Source: Acidimicrobiales bacterium
GTDB taxonomy: Bacteria > Actinomycetota > Acidimicrobiia > Acidimicrobiales > RAAP-2
NCBI GenBank assembly: GCA_036509775.1
Contig: DATCEZ010000161.1
Location: 1-42,419 of the forward strand
Direction of reading: 5' to 3'
DNA length: 42,419 nt
Positions 4,505 through 32,734 of this stretch are shown in pieces (positions within the stretch are counted from its first letter, which is position 1; each line of letters starts with the position of its first letter). Under the pieces are notes generated by a model, which did no database searches, was not told the origin of the DNA, and saw nothing but the letters and a program-made list of their open reading frames with translations. The translations under genes were made by a program, and so were the position numbers.

Positions 4505-4512
4505 CGACCGTG

Positions 4513-4519
4513 TACTGTA
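4513..4519. promoter_or_regulatory. face-to-face overlapping -10 hexamers TACTGT (plus, SDR) and TACAGT (minus, E1 fusion) in a 29-41-bp divergent spacer
   Basis: The plus strand reads cgaccgtgTACTGTActggtcg. TACTGT is at 4513-4518 and the reverse complement of 4514-4519 is TACAGT, which lies 9 nt before ATG 4504. The spacer also contains three GTAC tetramers flanked by CGACC/GGTCG. Confidence 0.3.
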
Positions 4520-4545
4520 CTGGTCGGTACAACATGAGGGAAACG

Positions 4546-6074: not shown

Positions 6075-6080
6075 GGAGCG

Positions 6081-6719: not shown

Positions 6720-6727
6720 TGAATGGG

Positions 6728-6733
6728 ACACTA
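6728..6733 (-). promoter_or_regulatory. -10 hexamer TAGTGT, 8 nt upstream of the tetR ATG (leaderless or near-leaderless)
   Basis: The minus strand reads GGCCCGC TAGTGT CCCATTCA ATG. The same hexamer precedes marR and the SDR gene starting at 25482. There is no SD between the hexamer and the ATG. Confidence 0.4.
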
Positions 6734-6736
6734 GCG

Positions 6737-6758
6737 GGCCGCCGGTCGATGGGCGGCC
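6737..6758. promoter_or_regulatory. inverted repeat GGCCGCC-N8-GGCGGCC over the tetR promoter spacer/-35 zone (candidate operator)
   Basis: Perfect 7-bp arms at 6737-6743 and 6752-6758. Further palindromes in the same 166-bp divergent region are GCCGATCGGC (6769-6778) and ACGCATGCGT (6841-6850). Confidence 0.3.
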
Positions 6759-6835
6759 GTGGTCGAGCGCCGATCGGCCGCCACGTCGCCAGGTGGCGCG
6801 GCCGCATCCCTCGGAGCAGTAAGGAGTCGACAGTC

Positions 6836-6889
6836 GTGTTACGCATGCGTTCCGAGACCTTCCGGCTCCTTGTCGGGTCGCGCCCGTGA
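6836..6889 (+). other. 17-codon upstream ORF (VLRMRSETFRLLVGSRP) whose stop overlaps the acyl-CoA ligase start (GTGA)
   Basis: AAGGAG at 6821-6826 is the only strong SD in the intergenic region and lies 9 nt before GTG 6836. The uORF stop TGA is at 6887-6889 and the ligase GTG is at 6886-6888. The ligase frame has no earlier start codon after TAA 6820-6822 and no SD of its own. Confidence 0.3.
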
Positions 6890-11988: not shown

Positions 11989-13485
11989 TCAGCCGCCTGC
12001 GCCGACGGCCGCACCCTCCACCGACGACACCTGGGCCGGCCCGGCGGAGATGAGCACGGCACTGGCGATCGCCCCCAGTGCGAGGAATCCGGCACCGACC
12101 GCGAAGGCCACGGCGAACCCATGGACGACGCCGGCCTGGGAGGCCGCCGCCCCGTGGGCGACGATGTAACTCGCGGTGGCGGTCGCCGCCAGGGTGTTCA
12201 GTAGCGCCGTGCCCAGTGAGCCACCGATCTGCTGTGTGGTGTTCACCAGAGCGCTGGCCACGCCCGCGTCGCGTTCGCGGACCCGTATGAGGGCGGTACT
12301 GCTGAAGGCGGGGAAGGCCAGGCCCAGACCGACACTCATCAAGATCTCCTGCGGCGCGACGTGAACCCAGAAATCGCTGTGCACCCCGATCTGCGTCAGC
12401 CAGGCCAACCCGCCGGCGGCGATGCCAAGGCCGACCGTCATCGGAATCCGCGGACCGATCCGCGGGACGAGGCCGGACGATGCGCCCGCCGCCAGAATGA
12501 TGCCGAACGCAAAGGGCAGGAAGGCGAGCCCCGCTTTGAGCGCCGAGTAGTGCAGCACACTCTGCAGGTAGTAGCTCAAGAACACGAACATGGCGAAGAG
12601 CCCGGCTCCCGTGAGCAACGAAGCGAGGAACGCACCGCCCCTGTTCCGGTCGCGCACCACCCGGAGCGGCAGGAGCGGATGGCTGGTCTTCGTCTCCAGG
12701 AAGACGAACGAGGCGAGGAGGACGACCGCGACGAGCAGGAGCACGATGGTCACCGTGGCGCTCCAACCGTCGCTCTCCGCCTTGGTGAAGCCGTAGACGA
12801 GGCTGACCAGACCCAACGTCGAGAGCAGCGCGCCGGGCACGTCGTACCTTGTCGACTCCGAGGACCTGCTCTCGCGCACGAGGAAGAACGCCCCGACAGA
12901 GGCGAGGACGGCGATCGGAACGTTGACGAGAAGGCACCACCGCCACGAGGCGTATTCCGTGAGCACGCCCCCGAGGAGGACGCCGATCGCTCCGCCGGCG
13001 CCCGAGACGGCACCGTAGGCACCGAACGCCTTGGCCCGCTCCTTGGCGTCGTGTTGGAAGGTGATGGTCAGGATGGACAGCGCCGCCGGCGCCATCAGGG
13101 CCGCGAACCCACCCTGGAGGGCGCGGGCGGCGAAGAGCATGGCTTCGTTGACGGCCAAGCCCCCGAGGGCCGACGCGCCGGCGAAGCCCAGCAGCCCGAC
13201 GACGAACATCCGCTTGCGGCCCGAGAAGTCGGCGATCCGGCCACCCAGCAGCAGGAAGCCCCCGAAGGCGAGCGTGTAGGCGGTGATGACCCACTGACGG
13301 TTGGCCGTCGAAATGTTGAGGGCATGTTGCGCCGACGGCAGGGCGATGGTGACGATCGATGCGTCGAGGACGATCATCAACTGCGCCACGATCACCACGG
13401 CGAGGATCCCCCACCGCCGCGGGTCGGGACCCGTCCCGTCCGTCAGGGGCGCTGACGATGCCGTCACGATGTCACTTGACTCCAC
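11989..13485 (-). CDS. MFS transporter, DHA2 (EmrB/QacA-like, 14-TMS) drug:H+ antiporter family
   Basis: Signature motifs LDASIVTIALPS and LGGRIADFSGRKRMF, with many hydrophobic segments. I prefer the start at GTG 13485 because GGAAGAGAGAG lies 5 nt upstream. The ORF track begins at TTG 13524. Confidence 0.9.
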   Translation of the reverse strand: MESSDIVTASSAPLTDGTGPDPRRWGILAVVIVAQLMIVLDASIVTIALPSAQHALNISTANRQWVITAYTLAFGGFLLLGGRIADFSGRKRMFVVGLLGFAGASALGGLAVNEAMLFAARALQGGFAALMAPAALSILTITFQHDAKERAKAFGAYGAVSGAGGAIGVLLGGVLTEYASWRWCLLVNVPIAVLASVGAFFLVRESRSSESTRYDVPGALLSTLGLVSLVYGFTKAESDGWSATVTIVLLLVAVVLLASFVFLETKTSHPLLPLRVVRDRNRGGAFLASLLTGAGLFAMFVFLSYYLQSVLHYSALKAGLAFLPFAFGIILAAGASSGLVPRIGPRIPMTVGLGIAAGGLAWLTQIGVHSDFWVHVAPQEILMSVGLGLAFPAFSSTALIRVRERDAGVASALVNTTQQIGGSLGTALLNTLAATATASYIVAHGAAASQAGVVHGFAVAFAVGAGFLALGAIASAVLISAGPAQVSSVEGAAVGAGG

Positions 13486-13510
13486 GGTGTCTCTCTCTTC
13501 CGTTCGCCCG

Positions 13511-13532
13511 CAACTCAGGGGCAACTCAGGGG
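13511..13532. repeat. perfect tandem direct repeat 2 x 11 bp (CAACTCAGGGG), upstream of the MFS gene and downstream of marR
   Basis: Units at 13511-13521 and 13522-13532 are identical. A third, degenerate copy (GCGGCTAGGGG) follows. The repeat lies 26-47 nt upstream of the MFS GTG on the minus strand. Confidence 0.8.
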
Positions 13533-13652: not shown

Positions 13653-14252
13653 TTACGCCACCTCGAACCGGCCGTTGCCGACGCCACGCCCATGCTTGTG
13701 CGCCTGGCGGGACCCGACCTCCTCAATGACTTCGTCGGAGTGCTCAATGTCGAACTCGTTCCCACTGGCCCGCAGCTCGGCCAGGAGATCGGTCAGGCGG
13801 CCCCGCTTGGTCTCGGACAGGCCGATGCACGAGTACACGGTGGCGTTCAGGTCCCGCGTGGCCTCGGTCGCCACCCGCTCGCCGCGCGCCGTAATGACCG
13901 CGAGCGTGGTGCGCGCGTCGGAGGGGTGGGGAACGCGGCGCACGAGCTTGTCGCCCTCGAGTCTGTCCATGATGTTGGTGACGGTTGCCGGCGGGATCCG
14001 CAAGGTCTTGCTGATCCAACTCAGAGCCAGTGAGGATTCGGGATCCATGGCCAACCACGCCAACACCTCGTAGCGGGCGAACGTGAGGTCGTGATGGCGC
14101 ATGACGCCGTTCACCTGATCGTTCAGCAGCTGATACGAGCGGAGGACGGCTGTGTACACGGCCATCCCCGACGCCGCCTCGGGCTCCCACCGCTCCAGCC
14201 AGACGCGTCGGGACGCCTCGACGACATCGAACGGAGCTTTCTGGAAACCCAT
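13653..14252 (-). CDS. MarR family transcriptional regulator
   Basis: 199 aa with a winged-helix region: LTFARYEVLAWLAMDPESSLALSWISKTLRIPPATVTNIMDRLEGDKLVRRVPHPSDARTTLAVITARG. Confidence 0.9.
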   Translation of the reverse strand: MGFQKAPFDVVEASRRVWLERWEPEAASGMAVYTAVLRSYQLLNDQVNGVMRHHDLTFARYEVLAWLAMDPESSLALSWISKTLRIPPATVTNIMDRLEGDKLVRRVPHPSDARTTLAVITARGERVATEATRDLNATVYSCIGLSETKRGRLTDLLAELRASGNEFDIEHSDEVIEEVGSRQAHKHGRGVGNGRFEVA

Positions 14253-14283: not shown

Positions 14284-16779
14284 TCAGGTGCCCTGCACCA
14301 GTGAGCCGCCGACGATCCCGTCGGCCTCGAGCGTGTCGATGTCGGTCGGCGAGAGCCCGAGTTCGCCCAGAAGCACCCGGTTGTGCTCCCCGAGCAGCGG
14401 GGCATGCCGTTCGTGCACCTTTTCCGGACCTCGCGAGAACCGCATGGGCAGCGTGCTGTAGCGGGAGGATCCGATCACCGGATGCGCCAGCTCCTCGAAG
14501 AAACCACGCGCCGCCAGCTGGGGCAGGTCGGGCTGCTCATGGGGCTGCATCACCTTGCCGACCGGGACGCCGGCCTCCCACAGGGTCGTGACGATGTCGT
14601 CCGCCGACAGGGCGCGGCACCACTCCCCCAGCAGCGTGTCAATCCGATCGTGCGCGTGCACCCGGCCGGCCATGCTCGCCAGCTCGGGGTCGGCGGCCCA
14701 CTCCGGGTCGCCCAACGCGGACCGCAGGGCGCTCCACTGCTCGTCGGTCGCGACCGCGATGGCGACCCACCCGTCGTCCCGGCCCCGCTCGTCGGGGCCC
14801 GCGACCTTGTAGAGGTTCTGGGGCGCCGCCATGGGACCACGGTTCCCGGCCCGCTCGAGCAGAGAGCCGTAGGCCGAGAACTCAATCGGTTGCTCGGCCG
14901 CGATGTTGAGCGCGGCATCGACCATCGCCGCCTCCACGAGGCCCCCTTCACCGGTCCGCTCCCGGTGCTCGAGGGCGAGCAGCAAGCCGTACAACGCGTG
15001 AAGCCCCGCGTTGGGGTCACCGACGCAATAGGGCTCGAACGGGAGCAGGTCCGGATGCCCGGTCAGCCAGGTGAGACCGGCGGCGTCCTCAATGACGAAG
15101 GCGAAAGCCGACAGGTCGCGCCCCGGCCCGTCGAGCCCGAACCCGGGCATGCGCACCATGATCAGATCGGGTCGCACGTCGCGCAGGGAGTCGAAGTCGA
15201 GACCCAGCTGGTCCAGCACCCGCGGCGTGTAGTTCTCGATCACCACGTCGCACGTGCCGATGACGCGCCGCGCCAGGTCGAGGCCGCGCGGTTCGCGCAG
15301 GTCTATGGTCAGGCTCTTCTTGTTCGTGTTGAGCGCGGCGAAGATCGGGCCCCGCTCCCAGTACTTGTCCTCTGTTTGCGGGACACCACCGACCAGCCGG
15401 GCCCCGTCGGGACGGGTGGCGGACTCCAGGTGGATGACCTCGGCGCCTAGGAGCGCCAGCGTGTGACCCGTGAGGGGCCCGGCCCAGAACGACGTCATGT
15501 CCAGGATCCGGAGTCCCTCGAAGGGCAGCGTCCGGGACGCAGCTGTCGCAGGAGGTCGCACCGGCTGCGCCGGCGTCGCCGCCTCTTCTCTCCCCAACTC
15601 TCCGAGGCGGGGGGCCGCTTCGGGCGCCCGGAGGCTCCCGGCCCCGAGCCGGAAGGGCGGCCCGGGGTTTGTCGCGCCGTCCCTGGGATTGGCCACGAAC
15701 GTCCCGCGCTCGACGAAGTGCGCCCACGTGGTGGCGTTCGCCCCGTTGGTGATGGGTGCGTTGGGGATCCGGAAGGCCGAGGCCTCCTCCAACACCTCCT
15801 CGACGGTGTGGTCCGCGATCCAGGCGTCAATAGTGGGTGTCAGGGCGGTGCGATCGAGGAAGAGTGACTGGTCCTCCATCCACTCGGGGTGCCCCACCAG
15901 CACGCAGAAGTCCAACCACTGCTGCCCCGTCCCGCACCCGAGCCCGACGAGCCCGTCGCTGGCCGCCCCGACGCCGGGCGTCGCCACGAACCGCTTCCGG
16001 CGCATCGGTCGACCCAACTGGTCGTTGAAGGTCACCGGGTAATAGGTGAGGCTCATCGCCAGCGTCTCGAGCATGGAGACGTCGACGAGCTCACCGCCCG
16101 ACGCGGCGCGTCGACGGGCCGCCAGCGTCCCGATGGCGCCGTAGAGCCCGGTGAGCCACTCCCCGACCTGTCCGCCGACGAACACGGGCGGGCGTTCGGG
16201 CCGCCCGCGCGCCAGTCCGACGATGCCTCCGGACCAGGCTTGCAGCGTGAACTCGGTGGCCGGCTTGTCGCTCCAGGGTCCGTCGAGCCCGAACGGCGTG
16301 AGGGAGGTGACGACCAGATGCGGATGGGCCCGCACCACTTCGCGGGGGTCCAGCGCTGCCTGCTCCGCCAACGGCGAGCCCCGCGACCAGACAAGCGCGT
16401 CGGCCGAAGACAGCAGTGCGTGCACGGAATCGAGACCGCCGGGGTCCGTGCCGTCGACCACGACGCTGCGCTTGGAGGCGCCGAGGAAGTTGAAGAGCGC
16501 GCCGTCATCGTCGACGGGGATCGCGGCGCCTGAGGCCGACCAGCGTCGGAGCGGGTCGCCTTCGGGCGACTCCACCTTGATCACCTCTGCGCCACCGTCG
16601 GCCAGCAGCTTCGTGCAGTAGGCGCCGCCGATCCAGGTCGAGAGGTCGATCACCCGGAACCCCGAGAGCGGCGATGCGTCAGGCGCGCCCGACGGCGCCC
16701 CCGCGCCCGCCCCCGCTTCTGGTGCGGGCACGGTCAGTCGGCGGCGGGGCGGCGGCGGCCGGAACGGCTCAGCCGCCAC
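14284..16779 (-). CDS. family III CoA-transferase, tandem fusion of two CaiB/BaiF-like modules
   Basis: 831 aa. Two copies of the N-terminal signature are present: FRVIDLSTWIGGAYCTKLLADGGAEVIKVESPEGDPLRRW and LRILDMTSFWAGPLTGHTLALLGAEVIHLESATRPDG. The start is uncertain: GTG 16779 overlaps the crotonase gene by 46 nt, while in-frame GTG 16731 leaves a 2-nt gap. Confidence 0.9.
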   Translation of the reverse strand: MAAEPFRPPPPRRRLTVPAPEAGAGAGAPSGAPDASPLSGFRVIDLSTWIGGAYCTKLLADGGAEVIKVESPEGDPLRRWSASGAAIPVDDDGALFNFLGASKRSVVVDGTDPGGLDSVHALLSSADALVWSRGSPLAEQAALDPREVVRAHPHLVVTSLTPFGLDGPWSDKPATEFTLQAWSGGIVGLARGRPERPPVFVGGQVGEWLTGLYGAIGTLAARRRAASGGELVDVSMLETLAMSLTYYPVTFNDQLGRPMRRKRFVATPGVGAASDGLVGLGCGTGQQWLDFCVLVGHPEWMEDQSLFLDRTALTPTIDAWIADHTVEEVLEEASAFRIPNAPITNGANATTWAHFVERGTFVANPRDGATNPGPPFRLGAGSLRAPEAAPRLGELGREEAATPAQPVRPPATAASRTLPFEGLRILDMTSFWAGPLTGHTLALLGAEVIHLESATRPDGARLVGGVPQTEDKYWERGPIFAALNTNKKSLTIDLREPRGLDLARRVIGTCDVVIENYTPRVLDQLGLDFDSLRDVRPDLIMVRMPGFGLDGPGRDLSAFAFVIEDAAGLTWLTGHPDLLPFEPYCVGDPNAGLHALYGLLLALEHRERTGEGGLVEAAMVDAALNIAAEQPIEFSAYGSLLERAGNRGPMAAPQNLYKVAGPDERGRDDGWVAIAVATDEQWSALRSALGDPEWAADPELASMAGRVHAHDRIDTLLGEWCRALSADDIVTTLWEAGVPVGKVMQPHEQPDLPQLAARGFFEELAHPVIGSSRYSTLPMRFSRGPEKVHERHAPLLGEHNRVLLGELGLSPTDIDTLEADGIVGGSLVQGT

Positions 16780-17705
16780 TCCGGTGGGAAGAGATCGTCG
16801 TTGTCCTTGACCGCGAGGTTGAGCCCGGCATCCATGGTCTCCTTGCTCAGGGTGGCCCGACCGCCGTTGTCGTCCTCGCGTAGTTGCCCGCCCATCGACT
16901 CGAGCCAGGCGCTGAGCAGGCTGCCCATGTACTCACCCTGGTGCTGCTTCATGATTTCGAAGAAGACCTTCTGCATGAACACGGTGTCGGTCGGCCTCGT
17001 GCGGGCGCAGGCGAGCGCATACTTCGCCGTCTCCGCCTCGAGGCCCTCACGCGGGACGACGCTGTTCACGAAGTTGCACTCGTACATCTCGTCGGCCGTG
17101 AAGGGGCGGCCGGTGAAGACCATCTCCTGGAACTTGCGCATGCCCATCATCGTCGCCCACTGCCACATGCGCGGTGCGTAGCCGACGTAGCGGAAGGCGG
17201 GATGCCCGAACAACGCGTCGTCGGACGAGACGATGAGATCGGCGTCGGCTGCCTGGTAGAAGTGCCAGCCGTAGCAGTAGCCCTTCACCTCCAGGATGCT
17301 GATCTTCTTGAAGTCCTGCAGCGTTCGGCAGCCGGACCTCGAATTGCCGTACCAGTGCAGCAACGACGCGCCGGCGCGGTACGAGCGCGGGCCCGGCATG
17401 GTGACGTCGTCGTCCTCGTCGATCCCGAACTCCTCGTGCAGGGCGGTACCCGCCTCGCGCTTCGCCATCAGCTCGTCGAGGTCGGCACCGGTGCCGAGGT
17501 GGTCCCCCACGCCGCGCACGACGAGCACCTTGACGTCGTCGTCGATGTTGGCCTTGAACAGCAGGTCGGCGTAGCGACGCCGGGCCGCAATGGTCGGGAT
17601 GTTGAGCTGGTCCGGACGGTTGAGCGTGATGGTGGCGATCCGGGTAGCCGGATCCTTCTCGTAGAGGATGATCTCCTCGGCGGGTGGCACGTCGACTTCG
17701 CTCAC
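16734..17705 (-). CDS. crotonase-superfamily protein (atypical enoyl-CoA hydratase/isomerase-like)
   Basis: The start is GTG 17705, with AAGGAG 9 nt upstream. Crotonase fold motifs are IATITLNRPDQLN, VLVVRGVGDHLGTGADLDE and ILEVKGYCYGWH. A roughly 50-aa acidic insertion lies between them. The 443-aa ORF-track version is an artefactual extension. Confidence 0.85.
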   Translation of the reverse strand: MSEVDVPPAEEIILYEKDPATRIATITLNRPDQLNIPTIAARRRYADLLFKANIDDDVKVLVVRGVGDHLGTGADLDELMAKREAGTALHEEFGIDEDDDVTMPGPRSYRAGASLLHWYGNSRSGCRTLQDFKKISILEVKGYCYGWHFYQAADADLIVSSDDALFGHPAFRYVGYAPRMWQWATMMGMRKFQEMVFTGRPFTADEMYECNFVNSVVPREGLEAETAKYALACARTRPTDTVFMQKVFFEIMKQHQGEYMGSLLSAWLESMGGQLREDDNGGRATLSKETMDAGLNLAVKDNDDLFPPEWRLSRSGRRRPAAD

Positions 17706-17709
17706 GTCG

Positions 17710-18840
17710 TTAGGCTCCTTGTCGGCGGATGGGTGTCGTCGCCAGGGACTCGGGACCAGCATCCGTGACGACGATCGGCTCCTGCACGTAGAGGGCACCG
17801 ACGCCTTCCTTCCAGACGTAGCCGGTGAGTGCGAAGACCATGCCCGCCTCGACGTGCTGCTCGCCTGCCGTGAGCGGCAACGAGCGGGTGACGAGCGGGA
17901 GGTCGAAGCCGAGCCCGAGTCCGCGCGCCACCGGCATGGGCGGCTGGGGCTCGCCGGCGGCGTCGTACGCCGTGAGCAGCCCGGCGAGCGGGGCGCCGAC
18001 CCTGCAGGCGTCGAGGAGGCGCTCCCACAGGGCACTGGCGCGCTGGGCCAACTCGGAGTCGACATGACCCCCCTCGCGCACTGCGTGGGTGCGGCCCACC
18101 TCCCCCGAATAGCCCCCGAGGACGACGCCGGCCTCGAAGGCCACCAGGTCTCCGGGTTGCACCGGCGTATCGCGGTTGGTTCGCCGCCACGGGTCCTGGC
18201 GCGAGGTGATCCAGGCCACGTCCTGTCCGGAGGGCGTGGTGACCCCCGCCGCTGCCATGGCTTCCATGAAGATCGCGGTCAGCTGCCGCTCGGTCACGCC
18301 GGGCACCAACGCGTGCGTCGCTGCGGCGAGCGCCTCCTCGCCCACGCGCACCGACGCCCGTATGGCCTCGACCTCCTCGGAGCTCTTGACCCGGCGGATC
18401 TGGCGCAGCATCGGTTCGCCGTCGATGAACTCGGCCGCGGGGAACGCCTTGGGCAACAGGTTGGCCGACGAGCCCGACATGGAGTCGGTGGCGACCCTCC
18501 GGGCCGTGGCCGCGCCGTCGATGTTCGACAACACCGTCACGAAGTTCAGGGCGTTGAAGGTGATGCCGTACAGGTTCTCGTGGGGGATCTCCTCGGGAAT
18601 GCCCTCGTCCCATGTGCTCAGCAGGTGCACCGCGCCGTTCTCACGCACAAACACGCAGCCCGGACCGAATGCACGGGAGCCGGCCGTCCACAGACGCGGC
18701 GCGCCCGAGACGTAACGCGCGTTCCCCTCGCGGCCGACAATGAGGAAGTCGACGTCGGCTGCGTCCATGGCGGCCAGGACGCGGGCGCGGCGCGCCCGTC
18801 GGAGGGCAGCGTCATCGGGGAGTATCTCAACGACGGTCAT
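17710..18840 (-). CDS. M24-fold (creatinase/prolidase-like) protein with degenerate metal-ligand set
   Basis: 376 aa from ATG 18840, with a creatinase/prolidase N-domain plus a pita-bread domain. At the five canonical ligand positions I read E (AFEAG), E (SGEVGRT), R (ARGLG), T (ALTGY) and Q/E (VQEP), by eye alignment to prolidase. Confidence 0.85.
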   Translation of the reverse strand: MTVVEILPDDAALRRARRARVLAAMDAADVDFLIVGREGNARYVSGAPRLWTAGSRAFGPGCVFVRENGAVHLLSTWDEGIPEEIPHENLYGITFNALNFVTVLSNIDGAATARRVATDSMSGSSANLLPKAFPAAEFIDGEPMLRQIRRVKSSEEVEAIRASVRVGEEALAAATHALVPGVTERQLTAIFMEAMAAAGVTTPSGQDVAWITSRQDPWRRTNRDTPVQPGDLVAFEAGVVLGGYSGEVGRTHAVREGGHVDSELAQRASALWERLLDACRVGAPLAGLLTAYDAAGEPQPPMPVARGLGLGFDLPLVTRSLPLTAGEQHVEAGMVFALTGYVWKEGVGALYVQEPIVVTDAGPESLATTPIRRQGA

Positions 18841-18848
18841 GGGATCCT

Positions 18849-20078
18849 TTAAAAGGGGTCGTAGGAGTAGTCGGTCATGGGCTCCCAACCGTCATCCGTG
18901 ATGCGCAGCACTTCCTCGGAGCGGTACCCGGCGGCGCCGTCGTCCCAGACGATCGGCTCGAGCACCAGGACCATGCCGTCGACGAGGACCAGGGAGGCGT
19001 CGAACGCCTCGCCGATGTCGCTCCCGACGTAGGGCATTTCGGCGCTGTCGATCCCGAGCCCGTGGCCGAGGTAGAAGTGCGGCATCCAGGGCTTCGCGCC
19101 ACCGGCCGCACCGATGGCAGCGGCCGTCAGGTCCGCGGCCGTGGCCCCGGCCCGGGTGACGTCGAGCACGGCGCCCATGATCGACTGCCACTGCTCGTAC
19201 TGGGCCCGCTGACGCGCGCTCGGCTCACGTCCCACCACCCAGGTCCGCCCGAAATCGGAGTGGAACCCGGCGTAACTGATGCCGAGGTCGACCCAGAGCA
19301 CGTCGCCCTCGACCAGTTCACGCTCGGTCGAGAGCAGCGGGCAGGCGAGGTCTCCGGTCGTCGTCCACGGACCGTCCTCCAGGCGGGCGGGCATCACCTG
19401 CCAGATCGGGTCGAGGATGTTGGCGTCGGCCCCGGCCTCGAAGATCGTGCGCAGGAATGTCGCCGTGAGGTCGGTCTGACGGACGCCGGGGGCGATCTTG
19501 GCCTGCACATCGGCGATGGCCAGCTCGGTGATCCGCAGGCCCTCGCGCATGGCCGACAGCTCGTCAGGTGTCTTGGACGCCTTGGCCATGCTGATCACCC
19601 GGCCCGCGTCCTTGGGCGAACCCGAGGCGAACAGGATCGACTGCTCACGGCGCAGTGCGTTGGTCCATTCGTCCATGCCGATCACCGCCCCGCTGGGCAC
19701 CAATCCGCCGAGCTGCGTCGCGAACAGCTGCACGCCTTCGTCGAAGTCGAGGTAGACGGGGCCGTGGAGGTGATCCGCCGGCATCTTCTCCCGCAGGCGA
19801 TCGTCCTCCCGCATCGGGGTGAAGAGGTGCGGCCAGTCGTCATCGGCCAGGACGACAGCGACCGGTTGCTCGAAGTTCGCCCGGCCCGAATCGGCCAGGG
19901 GCCAGATGGCTCCGGTGGCGTAGGCGACGTTCGTGTTGCCGAGCAGCACCAGGGCGTCGAGCCCCTGTTGGCGCATGACCGTCTGCATGCGCTCCATGCG
20001 CTCCCGCTGCATCCGGGTGAAGTCCGGCGACGCCGGAATGGTCGCCGGCGGCGCTTTCGCCATCAGCCCGGCGGGCAT
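18849..20078 (-). CDS. M24 family metallohydrolase (Xaa-Pro peptidase/creatinase-like), canonical ligands
   Basis: ATG 20078 overlaps the upstream stop by 1 nt (TGATG). All five ligand positions are intact: VDLG, HSDFGRT, LGHGLG, VLEPIVW and RSEEVLRIT. Confidence 0.85.
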   Translation of the reverse strand: MPAGLMAKAPPATIPASPDFTRMQRERMERMQTVMRQQGLDALVLLGNTNVAYATGAIWPLADSGRANFEQPVAVVLADDDWPHLFTPMREDDRLREKMPADHLHGPVYLDFDEGVQLFATQLGGLVPSGAVIGMDEWTNALRREQSILFASGSPKDAGRVISMAKASKTPDELSAMREGLRITELAIADVQAKIAPGVRQTDLTATFLRTIFEAGADANILDPIWQVMPARLEDGPWTTTGDLACPLLSTERELVEGDVLWVDLGISYAGFHSDFGRTWVVGREPSARQRAQYEQWQSIMGAVLDVTRAGATAADLTAAAIGAAGGAKPWMPHFYLGHGLGIDSAEMPYVGSDIGEAFDASLVLVDGMVLVLEPIVWDDGAAGYRSEEVLRITDDGWEPMTDYSYDPF

Positions 20079-21250
20079 CAGTCCTCCACCCCGAGGTACC
20101 GCTTGATGTTGTCGCTGACGATGGCCGTGGCCGCCTCGACGCCGACTGCGTCCACCACGTACTTCAGCGACTCGCTGCTGTAGCCGTAGGTGCTCTCGTT
20201 GTGGGGGAAGTCGGTGGACCACATGACCTTGTCCACGCCGATGCGGTCCACCAGGTCGAGCCCGAGCGGATCCACCATGAACGAGGCGTACATGTTGTGC
20301 TCCCAGTAGTACCGGGGCTCGTGCTGCATCTTCAGGTTGGCGATGTGCCGGAAGGAGGCACTGATGTGCTCGGCGTCCTGCAACGCCGAGGGCACCCAGT
20401 TGATCCCACCCTCGAACCAGCCCACGCGCAGGCCTGGGTGGCGGTCGAGGACGCCACCGAGCACGTACTTGCCGAAGAGGTCGCGGAAGGGAGCCACGGA
20501 CTGCAGCATGCCGAGGATGACGGGATTGAACTCGTTGGGCGACGAGGGCGGGCTCTCGCCGATGTGGTGCGACACCGGCACCTGCTCCTCCTCAATGGCC
20601 TCCCACACGCCGTCCATGGCGCTGCTGCCGAAGTCGATCGGCTTGCCGTCGTCGTCCTTCCCCGGCGACAGCGGCATCAGGAAGGTCTTGAGCCCGAGCT
20701 GCTTCAGCTCGCGCAGGGTCCGCCGGGCCCCTTCGGCATCCCACCAATTGATCAGCCCGACGCCGTAGATCCGGTTGCCCGAGCGCTCCTGCACCTCGGC
20801 GATGTGCTCGTTGTAGATGCGGAAGCAGCGCTCGCGCATCTCCTTGTCCGGCCAGCCGAACAGGGCGAGCACGGAGTTCGGGAAGGCCAGCTCCTTGGTC
20901 ACGCCCTCGGACTCCAGCGCGGCGAGTCGGGCCTCCACGTCGCCCGTGTGCGACCCGGACACGGGGTCGTACATGGTCAGGACCTCGACGAACTCCCGCA
21001 CGAGGATGGACTTCCCGCCCATGCCCAGTACCCAGCCACCGTCGACGTTCATGACCCGCGGTGCCTGCTCTCGCACGTCCTCGGGCAGTCGCTCGTAGAA
21101 GATGTCGACGGCCAGCGAAATGTGGTCGTCGGCCGAGAACACCTCGACGTCGGCCGGGAGTCCCGAGTCGACGATCTGTCCCAGATGCCGGTCCTTCGGC
21201 GCTCCGAGACCGTCGGCCGGGTATGTCAGCGTTCTTGCGTGACCAGTCAT
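20078..21250 (-). CDS. amidohydrolase-2 family protein (ACMSD/LigW-type metal hydrolase or decarboxylase fold)
   Basis: 390 aa with N-terminal FSADDHISL, mid HHIGE, and C-terminal MWSTDFPHNEST. It is the first gene of the 5-gene minus-strand operon. Confidence 0.9.
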   Translation of the reverse strand: MTGHARTLTYPADGLGAPKDRHLGQIVDSGLPADVEVFSADDHISLAVDIFYERLPEDVREQAPRVMNVDGGWVLGMGGKSILVREFVEVLTMYDPVSGSHTGDVEARLAALESEGVTKELAFPNSVLALFGWPDKEMRERCFRIYNEHIAEVQERSGNRIYGVGLINWWDAEGARRTLRELKQLGLKTFLMPLSPGKDDDGKPIDFGSSAMDGVWEAIEEEQVPVSHHIGESPPSSPNEFNPVILGMLQSVAPFRDLFGKYVLGGVLDRHPGLRVGWFEGGINWVPSALQDAEHISASFRHIANLKMQHEPRYYWEHNMYASFMVDPLGLDLVDRIGVDKVMWSTDFPHNESTYGYSSESLKYVVDAVGVEAATAIVSDNIKRYLGVED

Positions 21251-21387
21251 CTCCCCCGCTTCACTCCCCCCACTCAGTCTTCGTGTGGTGCCCGCAGATT
21301 ACTTCGGCTTCGTAGCAATCGTCAACGGATCCTGCTAGCTTGCTCCATCGGGGAACAGCACGCCGTCGGGAGGTCGGGGAGGGTGAC

Positions 21388-23100
21388 ATGACCACGTGGG
21401 ACACCACCGTCGACCTCGTGATCGTCGGATCGGGCGGCGGCGGCATGGTGGCTGCGTTGGCCGCTGACGACGCCGGAGCCAGTGCCCTCGTGCTCGAGAA
21501 GCAGGAGCTCATCGGGGGCTCGACCTGCATGTCCGGCGGCATCGCCTGGGTCCCGAACAACCCGGTCATGGCAGCGGACGGCGTCCGTGACTCCTACGAG
21601 GACGCCATGGCCCACTTCGAAGCTGTCGTGGGCGACGTGGGTCCCTGCTCCTCCTTCGAACGGCGCCACGCCTTCTTGACGGCGGGCCCCGAAATGGTCT
21701 CGTTCCTGCAGGACAGCGGCGTCCGGTTCGTCTACTGCCCCGGGTACAGCGACTACTACTCGAGCGCCAAGGGCGGTCACGACAACGGGCGCGGCATTGA
21801 GCCGATCCCCTACGACGGGCGGGTCCTCGGCGAGTGGCTGCCCAAGCTGCAGCAAGGGCTGGCCAAGAGCCTCGGCCTCGCGGTCATGACGAACGAGGCG
21901 CGGTCGCTCTCGCACTACAACCGCAGCCTGCGCGCCTTCGCGATCTCGGCCCGGGTGGTCATCAGGACCTACGCCGCCCGCCTGCGCCGGCAGGAACTGC
22001 TGACGAACGGCGCCTCGCTGATCGCGCAGCTGCTGCGGATCGCCGTCGACCGGGGGATCCCGATCTGGACCGACACCCCGCTGGAAGAGCTGATCGTCGA
22101 GGACGGCCGCGTCGTCGGCGTCCGCACCGTGCGCGACGGCGTCCCCGTGCTGGTGCGGGCCCGCCAAGGTGTGCTCCTGGCCGCCGGCGGCTTCGCTCAC
22201 AACCGCGACATGCGCGTCGAGTTCGGAGGCGATCAGCCCAACCAGGCCAAGTGGTCGATCTCCAACCCGGGCGACACCGGGGACGCCATCCGGAGCGCCA
22301 TGGCCATCGGCGCCCAGACCGATCTGATGGACGAGGCCTGGTGGCTCCCGTCCCCCCGGACGGGACGCTTCGGGCAATCGACGCTCGACCAGGCCCGCCA
22401 GCGGCCGCGCACCATGTACGTCGACGCCGCAGGCAAGCGGTTCGTGAACGAGTCCAACTCCTACATGGAAGTCGGCAAGGCGATGTACGCCCGGGACAAG
22501 ACGAGCAAGGCGGTCCCGTGCTGGCTGGTCTTCGACGACCGCTACCGGAAGCGCTACGCGCACCAGCGCTCCTCGCCGGGACGGTTCCCACGCAAGCTGC
22601 TCAAGAGCGGCATGCTCAAGCAGGCCTGGACGCTGAAGGACCTCGCCGTCATGTGCGGGATCGATCCCACCGGCCTGACCGAGACCGTCGAGCGCTTCAA
22701 CGAGAACGCCGAGCGGGGCATCGACCCCGACTACGGGCGGGGTGAGTCCGCCTACAACCGGGCGCTGGGTGACCCGAACCACAAGGTCCACCCCTGCCTC
22801 GGGCCCATTGACGAGGCCCCGTTCTACGCCTGCCAGGTCGTGCCCGGTGACATCGGCACCTGTGGCGGCCTCCTGACTGACGAGGACGCGCGGGTCGTCG
22901 ACCAGGGCGGTCGGGTGATCGACGGGCTCTACGCCACCGGCAACGGCACCGCCACCGTCATGGGCCGCCACTACCTCGGTCCGGGGGCGAGCATCGCCAA
23001 CACCATGGTCTTCGGCTACGTGGCCGCCCGGCACGCCGCCCGGACCGAGGCCCGGACCGAGGCGCGGACCGAGGCGCGGACCGAGGCTCCCGCCTCGTGA
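21388..23100 (+). CDS. FAD-dependent oxidoreductase, 3-ketosteroid-delta1-dehydrogenase/fumarate-reductase flavoprotein-like
   Basis: ATG 21388 follows GGAGGTCGGGGAGGG. The dinucleotide fold is DLVIVGSGGGGMVAALAADDAGASALVLEK..IGGST, and the C-terminal motif is GLYATGN. The tail carries (ARTE)x4. Confidence 0.9.
   Translation: MTTWDTTVDLVIVGSGGGGMVAALAADDAGASALVLEKQELIGGSTCMSGGIAWVPNNPVMAADGVRDSYEDAMAHFEAVVGDVGPCSSFERRHAFLTAGPEMVSFLQDSGVRFVYCPGYSDYYSSAKGGHDNGRGIEPIPYDGRVLGEWLPKLQQGLAKSLGLAVMTNEARSLSHYNRSLRAFAISARVVIRTYAARLRRQELLTNGASLIAQLLRIAVDRGIPIWTDTPLEELIVEDGRVVGVRTVRDGVPVLVRARQGVLLAAGGFAHNRDMRVEFGGDQPNQAKWSISNPGDTGDAIRSAMAIGAQTDLMDEAWWLPSPRTGRFGQSTLDQARQRPRTMYVDAAGKRFVNESNSYMEVGKAMYARDKTSKAVPCWLVFDDRYRKRYAHQRSSPGRFPRKLLKSGMLKQAWTLKDLAVMCGIDPTGLTETVERFNENAERGIDPDYGRGESAYNRALGDPNHKVHPCLGPIDEAPFYACQVVPGDIGTCGGLLTDEDARVVDQGGRVIDGLYATGNGTATVMGRHYLGPGASIANTMVFGYVAARHAARTEARTEARTEARTEAPAS
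23038..23085 (+). repeat. in-frame tandem repeat 4 x 12 bp (GCSCGGACCGAG) encoding ARTE-ARTE-ARTE-ARTE
   Basis: Units start at 23038, 23050, 23062 and 23074 and differ only at the third base of the Ala codon. The repeat lies 15 nt before the stop of the flavoprotein gene. Confidence 0.9.
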
Positions 23101-23111
23101 GGGAATGGGTC

Positions 23112-23321
23112 CTAGGTCAACGCCTCGCCGTCCCGGCGCACTGTGATGGCATGCGTCGGACACTGGCGCGCCGCCGTCACGATCGCGTCCTCGGTCGCAG
23201 CGTCGGGGTCGACGACGCGCGCAATGGAATCGTCGTCGAGCTCGAAGACCCCCGGCGCGGCGTACACGCAGTTGCCCGAACCCATGCACGAGTCGCGGTC
23301 GATCTCGATCTCCATGCGCAT
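23112..23321 (-). CDS. small [3Fe-4S]-type ferredoxin (P450-partner type)
   Basis: 69 aa from ATG 23321: MRMEIEIDRDSCMGSGNCVYAAPGVFELDDD...QCPTHAITV. The C-x2-G-x2-C...C-P pattern matches single-cluster actinobacterial ferredoxins. Confidence 0.85.
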   Translation of the reverse strand: MRMEIEIDRDSCMGSGNCVYAAPGVFELDDDSIARVVDPDAATEDAIVTAARQCPTHAITVRRDGEALT

Positions 23322-23371: not shown

Positions 23372-24649
23372 ATGAGCGAGTTCGAGAAGGCAAACTTCAT
23401 TACGGATCGGGCCATCCAGAATGATCCGTACCCCTACTTCGACTGGGTGCGGGAGCAGGGTCCGGTGTGGCGGGAGCCACACTTCGGCATGTACATGATC
23501 ACCGGCCACCCCGAGGCGATGGCGATCTACGGCGACCCGGCCACGTTCCCCGAGAACGACCTGCCGTCGGGGACGTACTCGTCGTGCAACGTGGTCTGCG
23601 GATCGTTCGTCAAGTTCCCCGTCCCGATGGAGGGCGACGACGTCAGCGACCTCATTGTGCAGTACCGCAACGAGCTCCCGTTCAGCGACCAGCTCCCCTC
23701 GTTCGACCCGCCGAACCACACGGCACACCGGCATCTGCTGATGCGGCTCATCACACCGAAGCGCCTCAAGGAGAACGAGGACTTCATGTGGCAGTTCGCC
23801 GACCGCCTCATCGACGCGTTCTTCGAGGACGGGTCGTTCGAAATGGTCGGCTCGTACGCCGAGCCGTTCACCCTGACGGTCATCGCCGACCTCGAAGGCG
23901 TGCCCGAGTCGGACCACTCGCTGTTCCGGGAGCGGCTCTCGACCGCGCACCAGGACGTCGGCCACAAACCCCTGGAGTTCCTCTACGAGCGCTTCAACGA
24001 CTACATCGAGGATCGCCGGCGCACCCCGCGCAACGACGTCCTCACCGGCCTGGCCACCGCCACGTTCCCCGACGGCTCGACCCCTGAGGCCAAGGACGCC
24101 GCCCTGATCGCCGCCAACCTCTTCGCCGGCGGCCAGGAGACCACCGTGCGCCTGCTCTCGTTCGCGCTGCGCATGCTGGGCGAACGGCCCGACCTCCAAG
24201 AGGCCGTGCGGGCTGACCGCGAGAAGATCCCGAACTTCATTGAGGAGACCCTCCGGCTCGAGAGCCCCCTGCGGACCCAGTTCCGGATGGCCCGCGTCGC
24301 CACGCAGCTCGGCGGTGTCGACATCCCGGCCGGGGCATCACTGATGCTCATCCCCGGCGCCTGCAACCGGGACCCCCGGGTGTTCGATCACCCCGACGAG
24401 TTCGACATCGACCGCCCGAACGCGCGGCAGCACATCGCCTTCGGGCACGGGATCCACACCTGTGCGGGAGCGCCGCTCGCCCGCGCCGAGGGCCGGGTCA
24501 CGCTCAATCGCTTCCTCGACCGCACGGCGGACATCTCCATTTCCGAAGAGCACCACGGTCCGGCGGACGCTCGCCGCTACGAGTACCTCCCGACCTTCTT
24601 CCTGCGTGGCCTTCAGAGCCTCAATCTCGAGTTCACTCCAGCCGGCTGA
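23372..24649 (+). CDS. cytochrome P450
   Basis: 425 aa with the heme-thiolate loop FGHGIHTCAGAPLA, the I-helix AGGQETT and the K-helix ETLRL (ExxR). Confidence 0.95.
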   Translation: MSEFEKANFITDRAIQNDPYPYFDWVREQGPVWREPHFGMYMITGHPEAMAIYGDPATFPENDLPSGTYSSCNVVCGSFVKFPVPMEGDDVSDLIVQYRNELPFSDQLPSFDPPNHTAHRHLLMRLITPKRLKENEDFMWQFADRLIDAFFEDGSFEMVGSYAEPFTLTVIADLEGVPESDHSLFRERLSTAHQDVGHKPLEFLYERFNDYIEDRRRTPRNDVLTGLATATFPDGSTPEAKDAALIAANLFAGGQETTVRLLSFALRMLGERPDLQEAVRADREKIPNFIEETLRLESPLRTQFRMARVATQLGGVDIPAGASLMLIPGACNRDPRVFDHPDEFDIDRPNARQHIAFGHGIHTCAGAPLARAEGRVTLNRFLDRTADISISEEHHGPADARRYEYLPTFFLRGLQSLNLEFTPAG

Positions 24650-24672: not shown

Positions 24673-25482
24673 TCAGGACGGAGACGTGTCCCCGCTCTCC
24701 GGGGGTCGCAGCGTCGACATGATCAGCTTCGTCTGCGCATAGGGCGGCCCGGCCGTGGTCCCGCCGTCGATGGGCAGCACGACGCCGGTCACCTGTGCCG
24801 CGCGGTCGCTGGAAAGCCAGACGACAGCGTTGGCTACGTCCTCGGGCTGCGCTTCGCGCCCCAAGGGCTGCATGTACTTCAAAACCGGCCCCATCTCGTA
24901 GGTCGTGATCCCGGTGCGGATATGGGCGGGCGTCAGGCAGTTGACCCTGATGTTGTAGGGCGCCAGATCGATGGCCATGCACTTGCTGGCGTGGGCGATG
25001 GCCGCCTTCGACGCCCGGTATGAAATCATGCCGGTGCCCGCGTTGATGGCGGCGATCGAGGCGTTGTTGATGATCGATCCCCCGCCGTGATCCTTCATGT
25101 AGCGCCCCGCGCGCTGGGAGCCGACGATAACGCCGAAGAGGTTCACGTTCATGATCCGGGAGAAGTCTTCGAGGTCGTCCGGCAGGAACCGCTTGAGGGG
25201 GCTGCCGATCCCGGCGTTGTTGAACATGATGTCCAGGCCGCCGAAGCGATCGACGGCGAAGTCGACCAACGCCTGCACCTGGTCCGCCTCACTGACGTCG
25301 GTCTGCTTGAAGGCAGCCGCGTCGCCGATGCTGTCGGCCAGCTGCTGCCCGCTCTCGGCGTCGACGTCCCCGATGACCACACTGGCCCCTTCGACCACGA
25401 GCAGCTCGGCTGTCGCCTTCCCGATGCCGCCCGCTCCGCCCGTCACGACGGCAACTTTTCCCTGGAGCTCTTGCGTCTGCAT
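24673..25482 (-). CDS. SDR family oxidoreductase
   Basis: Motifs KVAVVTGGAGGIGKA, NNAG and YRASKAA. It is convergent with the P450 gene across a 23-nt gap. Confidence 0.92.
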   Translation of the reverse strand: MQTQELQGKVAVVTGGAGGIGKATAELLVVEGASVVIGDVDAESGQQLADSIGDAAAFKQTDVSEADQVQALVDFAVDRFGGLDIMFNNAGIGSPLKRFLPDDLEDFSRIMNVNLFGVIVGSQRAGRYMKDHGGGSIINNASIAAINAGTGMISYRASKAAIAHASKCMAIDLAPYNIRVNCLTPAHIRTGITTYEMGPVLKYMQPLGREAQPEDVANAVVWLSSDRAAQVTGVVLPIDGGTTAGPPYAQTKLIMSTLRPPESGDTSPS

Positions 25483-25488: not shown

Positions 25489-25494
25489 ACACTA
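25489..25494 (-). promoter_or_regulatory. -10 hexamer TAGTGT exactly 6 nt upstream of the SDR ATG (leaderless transcript predicted)
   Basis: The minus strand reads AGACCG TAGTGT CATGGC ATG CAG, with no SD. Confidence 0.45.
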
Positions 25495-25583
25495 CGGTCT
25501 CGTAGCAAATGGTGCCGAAGCGATCCGGCTCTGCACGGAACGATTCGAGCCCGGGCGCACCGAACGAAGGAGAGGACGACGTC

Positions 25584-32684: not shown

Positions 32685-32690
32685 CCTCCG

Positions 32691-32696
32691 AATGTA
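32691..32696 (-). promoter_or_regulatory. -10 hexamer TACATT exactly 6 nt upstream of the DUF5996 ATG (leaderless predicted)
   Basis: The minus strand reads GGGA TACATT CGGAGG ATG GAT. The GGAGG abuts the ATG and so cannot act as an SD. Confidence 0.35.
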
Positions 32697-32704
32697 TCCC
32701 ACGT

Positions 32705-32734
32705 CCACTCCGGCCGAGCAGTGGCCCGGAGTGG
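32705..32734. promoter_or_regulatory. perfect 9-bp inverted repeat CCACTCCGG-N12-CCGGAGTGG in the DUF5996/LLM divergent region
   Basis: The arms are at 32705-32713 and 32726-32734. The repeat lies immediately upstream of the putative DUF5996 -10 box and about 95 nt upstream of the LLM ATG. Confidence 0.35.

Follow-up and report, generated by a model that had tools for sequence, protein, structure and literature searches.

The DNA analyzed here, hereafter the window, is a stretch of 42,419 nucleotides (nt) from an Acidimicrobiales bacterium (RAAP-2; assembly GCA_036509775.1, contig DATCEZ010000161.1, positions 1 to 42,419 of the forward strand) with a G+C content of ~69%, and its central feature is a row of five minus-strand genes between positions 21250 and 14284. 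An earlier note, made from the sequence, had described them as one translationally coupled unit, dependent on coenzyme A (CoA), in which every member departs from its family archetype and for which no known pathway could be named. All five open reading frames (ORFs) lie where they had been placed and in the order given. The first encodes a protein of 390 amino acids with an Amidohydro_2 domain (Pfam PF04909; 20078-21250), which we predict to be a di-iron C-H hydroxylase of the family of amidohydrolase-related dinuclear oxygenases (AROs). It is followed by two proteins with Creatinase_N and Peptidase_M24 domains, namely M24a (409 amino acids; 18849-20078), with the creatinase/prolidase fold and a complete dinuclear metal site, and M24b (376 amino acids; 17710-18840), a ligand-less pseudo-M24. 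The fourth gene encodes a crotonase-fold protein (ECH_1; 323 amino acids; 16734-17705) without either catalytic Glu, and the fifth a two-domain family III CoA-transferase, CaiB2 (two CoA_transf_3 domains; 815 amino acids; 14284-16731). Read from the sequence, the ARO and M24a genes overlap by 1 nt (TGATG), 8 nt separate M24a from M24b, and 4 nt separate M24b from the crotonase gene, as the earlier note had it. The last junction had been given as either an overlap or a 2-nt gap; it is 2 nt if CaiB2 starts at GTG 16731, as in the database gene model of 815 amino acids, with 16779 as the alternative start. Scans of the operon strand for terminators and E. coli-type sigma-70 promoters returned neither a terminator-like site nor a consensus promoter in the interior of the unit. 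The scheme that we favor for this locus, and to which we give an even chance of being right overall, is that of a repressor-controlled catabolic island in which a hydrophobic, terpenoid- or steroid-like acid would be activated on CoA, hydroxylated at the beta position, and cleaved by retro-aldol chemistry.

The arrangement recurs widely. A genome scan over one genome per species, with an alignment of M24b as the query, found at least 577 encoded relatives, and all the loci collected were compared by tblastn with twelve proteins of the window. The best 80 come from soil metagenome-assembled genomes of Acidimicrobiaceae/Acidimicrobiales and from Mycobacterium species, including M. kyorinense and M. 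shimoidei; an M. branderi orthologue came from a separate plasmid search. About 50 Acidimicrobiia loci carry genes for a short-chain dehydrogenase/reductase (SDR), a cytochrome P450, and a KstD-like flavoprotein and then, divergently, the ARO, M24a, M24b, crotonase, CaiB2, and MarR genes, with order and orientation kept at 62-98% protein identity. The 31 Mycobacterium-type loci run SDR, (TetR), P450, ARO, M24a, M24b, and then CaiB2, with 55-62% identity across the ARO-M24a-M24b-CaiB2 genes, and lack the KstD-like gene and the orthologous MarR. CaiB2 homologues among the matches listed are all at least 73% identical, the named ones belonging to Acidimicrobiales metagenome-assembled genomes. Conservation of order on this scale is far beyond chance. 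The five genes are a real and strongly conserved operon of soil Acidimicrobiia and mycobacteria, which upholds the coupled, syntenic unit proposed earlier. The cross-genome comparison that the earlier note had called for also shows the tandem CaiB gene, the M24 pair, and the amidohydrolase-2 gene kept together in both lineages, whereas the crotonase is mainly a feature of Acidimicrobiia, being present in nearly all of their loci but in 11 of the 31 Mycobacterium-type loci. An invariant core consists of the ARO, M24a, M24b, and two-domain CoA-transferase genes, always beside a P450 gene, and the conserved unit exceeds five genes by the addition of MarR, the KstD-like flavoprotein, a small ferredoxin, a CYP150-family P450, the SDR, and a promoter/operator block. 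None of the five operon proteins scored above the cut-off of a curated NCBIfam family, every score falling far under it, and a full-text literature search for the five-family gene combination returned nothing, so that no described pathway with this gene set or with characterized orthologues of its members was found.

Variants of the arrangement were also seen. On one long-read contig, M24a and M24b are fused in frame (P0165). In another locus, a fragment of the ARO is fused to the crotonase (P0244; L085, 9001-10611), the M24 pair is missing, and several neighboring genes are split. Both fusion contigs look frameshift prone, may represent assembly errors or decaying loci, and are weak evidence only. 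On the M. branderi megaplasmid pJCM12687 (L003, 955-15529), ferredoxin, P450, ARO, and two M24 genes stand in series, and a crotonase gene with a divergent CoA-transferase (~30% identity, two overlapping ORFs in different frames) lies 10 kb off, adjoining two MarR genes and MmpL/MmpS; in total, ARO-like matches occur at 9 places on the plasmid.

The first gene had been labeled amidohydrolase-2, and a hydrolase function did not survive closer comparison. The Amidohydro_2 domain is recognized at 73.5 bits against a cut-off of 26.4, and the closest solved structures are PtmU3 (E 4e-30; phmmer, 108 bits over ~335 residues) and DitZ (E 4e-28), with decarboxylases and hydrolases of the ARO fold matching at E 1e-7 or worse. 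PtmU3, DitZ, AibH2, and SfbO define the AROs (PMC13154177, PMC10811679), which are marked by an N-terminal D-x-H and a C-terminal D-x-P-H-x-D/E motif (PMC13154177), the latter stated to be absent from characterized PF04909 hydrolases and decarboxylases (PMC13154177, PMC10811679). Both motifs are present in gene 1, as D41-D-H43 and D347-F-P-H350-N-E352, and are kept in 77-80 of 80 orthologues. The SIHIG and AEAG segments of PtmU3 are matched in the alignment by H228/H229 and E280, equivalents of the ligands His211 and Glu265 of AibH2, and these residues are invariant or nearly so in the same 80 sequences. The di-iron, high-potential class has been described as having a hydrophilic gamma1, a hydrophobic gamma2, and a non-aromatic gamma4 residue (PMC13154177), and gene 1 has Asp, Phe, and Asn at these places (D42, which is D or N in orthologues; F123; N351), in agreement with that class. 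The terminal Glu of the C-terminal motif is the PtmU3 variant, other characterized AROs carrying Asp (PMC13154177). Judged by these residues, gene 1 almost certainly encodes an oxygen-dependent di-iron hydroxylase of the ARO type, and the presence of an oxygenase would therefore shift the chemistry of the operon from hydrolytic to oxidative.

The functions of the two closest relatives place this prediction into context. PtmU3 serves diterpenoid biosynthesis as a beta-hydroxylase and accepts substrates ligated to CoA (PMC7782822), and the ligand reported for DitZ is dehydroabietic acid, a free acid (PMC13154177). Characterized AROs hydroxylate unactivated C-H bonds (PMC13154177, PMC7782822), and both AibH1H2, with 2-aminoisobutyrate, and PtmU3 do so next to a fully substituted carbon (PMC13154177, PMC7782822, PMC13599519). 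A further ARO, 38% identical and with the motifs D-N-H and D-Y-P-H-N-E, was found on plasmid pJE1 of Sphingomonas sp. JE1 (L004, 9422-13158) in a row of P450, EthD, SDR, and ARO genes without M24 genes. Around it lie a CaiB/BaiF gene and genes for a thiolase, an aldehyde dehydrogenase, an acyl-CoA ligase, and 3-hydroxyacyl-CoA dehydrogenases. The cluster, from a proteobacterium, is of like oxidative logic and is relevant to the Ambrox pathway of Sphingomonas considered below; a literature search for pJE1 returned nothing.

The M24 pair joins a complete metal site to a degenerate one. M24a had been called canonical, and its five metal ligands are indeed complete (D264, D275, H339, E374, and E388, invariant in 79 orthologues), but the peptidase motif is not: M24a reads GHGLGIDSAEMP, and a motif alignment by eye puts Ala346, invariant in the same 79 sequences, at the second His of GHGxGxxxHE, a residue that takes part in peptide hydrolysis. 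The fold is supported by Pfam and by Foldseek. Curated peptidase, DoeA, DddP, and creatinase models were not approached by either protein; M24a scores 38 against a cut-off of 575 for DoeA_2, 34 against 613 for DoeA, and 46.5 against 600 for DddP, and M24b scores lower still. The degenerate ligands noted in M24b recur across 84 orthologues as E/S/D236, E247, R306, T/S339 (T339 in this protein), and E354. An exhaustive profile search with M24b gathered 193 clusters (50% identity) at E 1e-30 or better, and the DDHEE set occurs in 0 of 66 full-length representatives of the M24b clade (P0361-P0510). Because no full-length representative keeps DDHEE, M24b is on its residues a member of an old clade of pseudo-M24 proteins. 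In this operon it probably accompanies M24a as a non-catalytic partner. When plasmids were searched with M24b and with a distant member of its clade, the M. branderi orthologue was the sole match. In the creatinase dimer, the active site of a subunit is capped by the N-domain of its neighbor. As the M24a and M24b genes adjoin here and their ORFs overlap by ~20 nt in mycobacteria, a heterodimer closed in the same manner, with a single working site, is likely.

Such a site could also act before anything else does. It is conceivable that M24a/M24b is a true amidohydrolase that frees the acid from an amide conjugate, such as an N-acyl amino acid or a lactam, with CoA transfer and hydroxylation to follow, in which case the substrate would be lipid-like and either conjugated or nitrogen-containing. 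That M24a keeps the full dinuclear hydrolase site fits this reading, as does the persistence of the ARO-M24a-M24b-CaiB2 core without the crotonase in mycobacteria, and to our knowledge all characterized M24 enzymes are hydrolases, except for the lyase DddP. Against it stand the loss of the second His to an invariant Ala346, the distance of M24a from every curated peptidase, DoeA, DddP, and creatinase model, and the lack of conserved amino acid catabolic or transport genes near the related loci, and on balance we consider an amide-cleaving first step improbable.

The crotonase-fold protein had been said to lack both catalytic glutamates, and this is the case. It belongs to the fold by its ECH_1 score (65 bits against a cut-off of 27), and motif alignment places Y150 and A170 at the sites of rat Glu144 and Glu164. 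All 57 orthologues compared have Y150, and either Ala or Ser stands at position 170. The motifs in which these residues lie, KGYCYGWHFYQAxDAD and LFGHPxFRY, do not vary among the same sequences, and invariant Tyr, His, and Arg residues lie around the oxyanion hole. Because the motifs around the Glu positions are invariant, the sequences argue for a specific, non-hydratase active site under selection. No curated ECH family was reached at its cut-off, and carnitinyl-CoA dehydratase structures gave weak matches only. The protein can be regarded as a candidate retro-aldolase, hydrolase, or decarboxylase acting on an acyl-CoA.

The tandem CaiB architecture of the fifth product was confirmed by its two CoA_transf_3 domains, and the CoA dependence claimed for the module is supported. 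Best matches of CaiB2 are formyl-CoA, succinate-glutarate, and benzylsuccinate transferases. The N-terminal half best matches chain A and the C-terminal half chain B of benzylsuccinate CoA-transferase. D572, in the motif GDPN of the C-terminal half, corresponds in the alignment to Frc D169 and was found in 66 of 66 orthologues, whereas the N-terminal half has an invariant Q188 at the site of the catalytic Asp. Since the halves match two subunits and the Asp is found in the C-terminal half only, CaiB2 looks, by alignment, like a fused heterodimer-type true transferase with one active site. The earlier comparison with DddD stands as far as the two domains go but is not specific to DddD, as two-domain CoA-transferases form a family of at least 2,401 proteins (PMC6006322). 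Only DddD and PtmU4 have been characterized among them, and in PtmU4 and its homologues it is the C-terminal domain that carries the conserved Asp (PMC6006322).

These data bear directly on the substrate class that had been suggested earlier, a small zwitterionic or osmolyte-like acid such as dimethylsulfoniopropionate (DMSP), carnitine/crotonobetaine, ectoine, or a creatine-like compound, handled by DddD-, CaiB/CaiD-, DddP-, or DoeA-like chemistry. The suggestion drew on the tandem CaiB shared with DddD (PMC6006322), on the pairing of a CaiB with a crotonase as in the carnitine pathway, and on the presence of DoeA, DddP, and creatinase among M24 relatives, and DddP does give the top TM-score to the M24a model, at 0.73. 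Scores against the curated models are far under the cut-offs, however (CaiB [PRK03525], 118 against 413; DddP, 46 against 600; DoeA, 38 against 575), gene 1 is by sequence an oxygenase and not a hydrolase, and the conserved partners are a P450, a ferredoxin, a KstD-like protein, an SDR, and MarR. The hosts, moreover, are soil Acidimicrobiia and mycobacteria, and no betaine or osmolyte transporter is conserved. We therefore rejected the osmolyte, DMSP, and carnitine readings on the curated-model scores, the ARO identity, and the oxidative partners, and regard a substrate of this class as extremely unlikely.

The partners other than MarR lie on the far side of the intergenic region. A KstD-like, flavin adenine dinucleotide (FAD)-dependent dehydrogenase (FAD_binding_2; 21389-23100, plus strand), conserved in 48 Acidimicrobiia loci, is transcribed divergently from the operon. 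It barely passes the curated model for 3-ketosteroid delta-1-dehydrogenase (NCBIfam PRK12844; 791.4 bits against a cut-off of 789), so that a steroid may be its substrate, and its best solved relative is 3-oxosteroid 1-dehydrogenase (7p18; E 6e-113). Antisense between this gene and the P450 gene lies a small single-cluster ferredoxin of ~69 amino acids (Fer4_15/Fer4_13; 23112-23321, minus strand) with the motif CxxSxxC...CP and with matches in 39 related loci. A motif of this unusual type has been reported in M. marinum Fdx9, the ferredoxin paired with CYP105Q4 in that genome (PMC6237146). The ferredoxin is a likely electron donor to the P450 and possibly also to the ARO. The CYP150-family P450 (Pfam p450; 23372-24649, plus strand) matches CYP150A6 (6dcd) over its full length at E 6e-140 and is kept at 75-95% identity in Acidimicrobiia loci; the related CYP150A5 binds beta-ionone, a gem-dimethyl isoprenoid (PMC6237146). 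The SDR (adh_short_C2; 24673-25482, minus strand) is kept at 75-97% in Acidimicrobiia loci and has a 45-54% identical relative in mycobacterial loci. Ferredoxin and P450 genes lie immediately upstream of the ARO gene in M. branderi, and in M. kyorinense the P450 in this position is an orthologue of CYP105Q4 (E 7e-199), for which no substrate has been found (PMC6237146). The conserved P450, ferredoxin, KstD-like, SDR, and MarR/TetR neighbors point to a hydrophobic alicyclic acid as the substrate.

The same neighbors can be read another way, with CoA serving only as a handle, as in the Bai pathway of bile acids. A steroid or terpenoid acid would be thioesterified at a distal carboxylate, the SDR, KstD-like protein, and ARO would modify the rings, and the family III transferase would pass CoA from the product to the next substrate, with no C-C cleavage beside the thioester. 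It is general knowledge that CoA is often recycled in a pathway by its own family III transferase (BaiF, CaiB, BbsEF), and the combination of SDR, flavoprotein dehydrogenase, and CoA-transferase mirrors the Bai enzyme set; the match of CaiB2 to the two benzylsuccinate CoA-transferase subunits, the borderline 3-ketosteroid dehydrogenase score, and the lack of beta-oxidation genes in the conserved unit would all be in keeping. The closest ARO relatives, however, beta-hydroxylate a CoA-ligated diterpenoid (PtmU3) or hydroxylate a diterpenoid acid (DitZ), crotonase-fold proteins act on atoms beside the thioester, and the M24 pair would be left without a role. We think it unlikely that CoA is a mere handle here.

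Expression of the favored catabolic island appears to be under repressor control. A conserved block at 21296-21343 (minus strand), read from the sequence, comprises a putative promoter and operator of the operon. A -35 element TTGACG (21325-21320) and a -10 element TAATCT (21301-21296) are separated by an 18-nt spacer that holds TTGCTACGAAGCCGAAG (21318-21302) and carries an imperfect inverted repeat, and GCAAGCTAGCAGGATCC forms the block upstream. In phylogenetic footprinting the stretch GCAAGCTAGCAGGATCC-GTTGACG-ATTGCTACGAnnCCGAAG-TAATCT is near-invariant in 48 of 48 Acidimicrobiia loci, with varying flanks. A scan with the E. coli-type sigma-70 consensus returned no promoter here, the assignment coming from the footprint, and TAATCT reads as an actinobacterial-type -10 element (TAnnnT). 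A repressor site within the spacer would fit the probably co-transcribed MarR. The divergent promoter region that had been described is present; its length had been given as 137 bp, but with ATG 21389 as the start of the KstD-like gene it comes to 138 bp. The gap between the SDR and Rieske genes (25492-25508, plus strand) holds, by pattern match, another copy of the operator-like motif (CTACGGTCTCGTAGCAA). The two 17-mer sites are the sole matches in the window, against a chance expectation of 0.05 for a pattern derived from these same two sites, and the second copy is kept in the 9 closest loci only.

The MarR-family gene (MarR/MarR_2; 13653-14252, minus strand) had been taken for a leaderless gene that follows the operon. 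We rejected this, as it starts 31 nt past the CaiB2 stop on the same strand, with equal spacing in the related locus L001, and is more likely the sixth gene of the operon. Its position is kept in nearly all Acidimicrobiia loci at 69-96% identity, mycobacterial loci having TetR or other MarR genes instead, and the protein is the probable repressor of the regulon. The DHA2 exporter of the major facilitator superfamily that follows (11989-13524, minus strand; TIGR00711, 244 bits against a cut-off of 230) is present as described, but its orthologue (>85% identity) is restricted to the closest relatives, and it was rejected as a member of the conserved unit and is treated as an accessory neighbor.

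This regulatory layout also helps to weigh whether the unit might instead tailor a secondary metabolite, as PtmU3 and PtmU4 do in platensimycin biosynthesis. Both the closest relative of the ARO and one of the two characterized two-domain CoA-transferases are biosynthetic, and many AROs sit in biosynthetic clusters (PMC13154177). Ligand-responsive MarR/TetR repressors with an in-spacer operator are, on the other hand, typical of catabolic operons, the compact island is kept in two distant actinobacterial lineages amid varying surroundings, and neither the window nor the related loci examined contain a gene for a terpene synthase, polyketide synthase, nonribosomal peptide synthetase, or prenyltransferase. 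A biosynthetic role thus appears highly improbable.

The gene order and its conservation, the family assignments, the active-site inventories, and the conserved promoter block were all observed here, whereas in the favored catabolic scheme we infer the substrate class, the sequence of reactions, and what the crotonase and the M24 pair do. Ordinary beta-oxidation of the substrate acid would be blocked by a fully substituted (quaternary) alpha-carbon. As a first step, the substrate would be oxidized by the SDR and by the CYP150-type P450 with electrons from the small ferredoxin, perhaps with conversion of a methyl to a carboxylate or of an alcohol to a ketone, and the KstD-like flavoprotein could desaturate beside a ring ketone. 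CaiB2, with its sole active site in the C-terminal half, would then load the acid onto CoA from a thioester donor, possibly the pathway's own product. The PtmU3-type, O2-dependent di-iron ARO would hydroxylate an unactivated beta C-H of the acyl-CoA, and a retro-aldol reaction would split the resulting tertiary beta-hydroxyacyl-CoA, so that a ring is opened or the block is removed. The textbook candidate for this cleavage is the Glu-less crotonase, which could stabilize the thioester enolate with no hydration needed, while the M24a/M24b heterodimer, with its one metal site, might carry out the cleavage or an adjacent hydrolytic step. Given that ARO-M24-M24-CaiB2 is retained in many mycobacterial loci that have no crotonase, cleavage may even be the task of the M24 pair, DddP being, by analogy, a lyase precedent in the fold; alternatively, the pair may hydrolyze a conjugate or a lactone. 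MarR would repress from the in-spacer operator until the acid or its CoA ester appears.

A pathway with this chemical logic was described in 2026 for (-)-Ambrox, a saturated gem-dimethyl terpenoid, in Sphingomonas, by nuclear magnetic resonance and isotope labeling (PMC13599519). There, a P450 turns the C4 methyl into an acid, the adjacent C5-H is hydroxylated, and a retro-aldol reaction opens ring A, followed by desaturation and beta-oxidation; PtmU3 is named by the authors as a parallel, and they found no gene for the hydroxylase or the aldolase (PMC13599519). By analogy, the island encodes a plausible enzyme for each Ambrox-type step.

Several observations weigh against the retro-aldol scheme. 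Some two thirds of Mycobacterium-type loci lack the crotonase, which weakens its role as the cleaving enzyme, and its AlphaFold2 model has a predicted local distance difference test (pLDDT) score of 39, from a shallow alignment at ≥81% identity, and was not used for fold search. The M24a model (pLDDT 72) matches prolidase, creatinase, DoeA, and DddP about equally, at TM 0.64-0.73, and so does not discriminate among them. We know of no M24 enzyme with a CoA-ester substrate or aldol cleavage activity. The ARO is about equally distant from PtmU3, with its CoA ester, and DitZ, with free dehydroabietic acid, and for this reason a CoA ester is a putative substrate. Thiolase, acyl-CoA dehydrogenase, and aldehyde dehydrogenase genes lie outside the conserved unit, so that the downstream steps are missing from it, and because the KstD-like gene is absent from mycobacteria, a 3-keto ring cannot be universal in the substrate.

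A bolder version of the favored scheme can be put forward, although we hold it to be doubtful. The ARO, the M24a/M24b pair, and the two-domain CoA-transferase could be a trio, not recognized before, for removing quaternary-carbon blocks, in which the ARO would produce a tertiary beta-hydroxyacyl-CoA and the M24 heterodimer, with one of its halves dead, would act on it as a metal-dependent lyase. The island would then be both the missing gene set for opening ring A of gem-dimethyl terpenoids and the native pathway of the mycobacterial CYP105Q4. If true, the lyase role of the heterodimer would be new chemistry for the pita-bread fold.

When placed into a wider context, the analysis suggests that the standard labels (amidohydrolase, Xaa-Pro dipeptidase, enoyl-CoA hydratase, CaiB-like CoA transferase) hide an oxygenase-centered pathway that, among soil Acidimicrobiia and mycobacteria, would be encoded in the genomes of several hundred species at the least. 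Little is known of the genes with which bacteria open saturated polycyclic terpenoid rings that have quaternary carbons, and the island offers a compact set of candidates: the type of hydroxylase, an enzyme for CoA loading, two that might perform the cleavage, and a redox partner, along with a regulator and an operator. The orphan P450 CYP105Q4 gains a genomic context, and a sizeable ligand-less M24 clade is exposed, whose members are probably obligate partners of catalytic M24 subunits.

Elsewhere in the window, a Rieske ring-hydroxylating alpha-subunit-like gene without an adjoining beta subunit (25509-26948, plus strand) and a BBE-type FAD oxidase (27545-29080, plus strand; nearest curated models BagK/FevA1, far under cut-off) are common to the closest relatives of the island only. 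Positions 1-9830 hold a second CoA/lipid block, with SDRs, an acyl-CoA dehydrogenase, a TetR gene, a fused E1 alpha/beta dehydrogenase component (2513-4504), an acyl-CoA synthetase (6886-8445), and an Abhydrolase_10 protein (8442-9830). Two genes joined by a 1-nt start/stop overlap at 33894 occupy 32626-34595, the first for an F420-dependent LLM-class oxidoreductase (TIGR03857; 382 bits against a cut-off of 218) and the second for another crotonase-family protein. The G+C content falls from ~0.68 to 0.60 over 37000-42419, which may be a compositionally distinct segment; it carries signaling genes for a PAS hybrid kinase, response regulators, and an EAL protein, with a CHASE3 histidine kinase just upstream.

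Comparison with known systems shows where the island agrees with precedent and where it departs from it. The nearest likeness to gene 1 is PtmU3 of the platensimycin/platencin (ptm) system of Streptomyces platensis, with a like metal-ligand set that includes the rare terminal Glu, although the relationship is distant. The ptm system is biosynthetic, and its acid is activated by ATP-dependent acyl-CoA synthetases; here, the context appears catabolic, and activation would be by a two-domain CoA-transferase. No record of an M24 pair in the ptm cluster turned up in the sources consulted, which did not include its gene list. A-ring cleavage in the ptm system is set up by hydroxylation at C5, beside a carboxylated gem-dimethyl carbon (PMC13599519). 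The Ambrox pathway fits the enzyme set of the window in its chemical logic, but its genes are dispersed in Sphingomonas and activation is thought to be by a CoA ligase (PMC13599519), whereas the genes here are clustered, actinobacterial, and include the M24 pair, and a link to labdanoids would be by analogy. DitZ, from abietane and resin acid degraders, shares with gene 1 the high-potential di-iron ARO class and an Asp at gamma1; it matches gene 1 weakly (E 4e-28) and differs in ending its motif as D-x-P-H-x-D where gene 1 has the -E variant. CaiB2 resembles DddD and PtmU4 in its tandem CoA_transf_3 domains and in the catalytic Asp of the C-terminal domain (PMC6006322); DddD is, however, a DMSP transferase/lyase and PtmU4 a sulfur transferase working with an acyl-CoA synthetase, and CaiB2 occurs in neither context, its genomic setting being non-marine and non-DMSP. 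AibH1H2, the 2-aminoisobutyrate hydroxylase of Rhodococcus, is an ARO used where a quaternary alpha-carbon blocks metabolism, and it pairs the catalytic di-metal AibH2 with the mononuclear AibH1 (PMC7782822, PMC10811679). Its unequal pair consists of two amidohydrolase-fold subunits and receives electrons from a Rieske ferredoxin, whereas the catalytic/degenerate pair of the window has the M24 fold and is separate from the ARO, and the ferredoxin is a small single-cluster Fe-S protein. AROs, two-domain CoA-transferases, crotonases, and M24 proteins are thus each known as families, and there is chemical precedent for activating an acid, hydroxylating it at the beta position, and cleaving it. 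What is new is an ARO in constant company with a pair of M24 proteins, one catalytic and one pseudo, and with a fused CoA-transferase, together with the conserved putative operator and the link to the orphan CYP105Q4, none of which is visible in current annotation.

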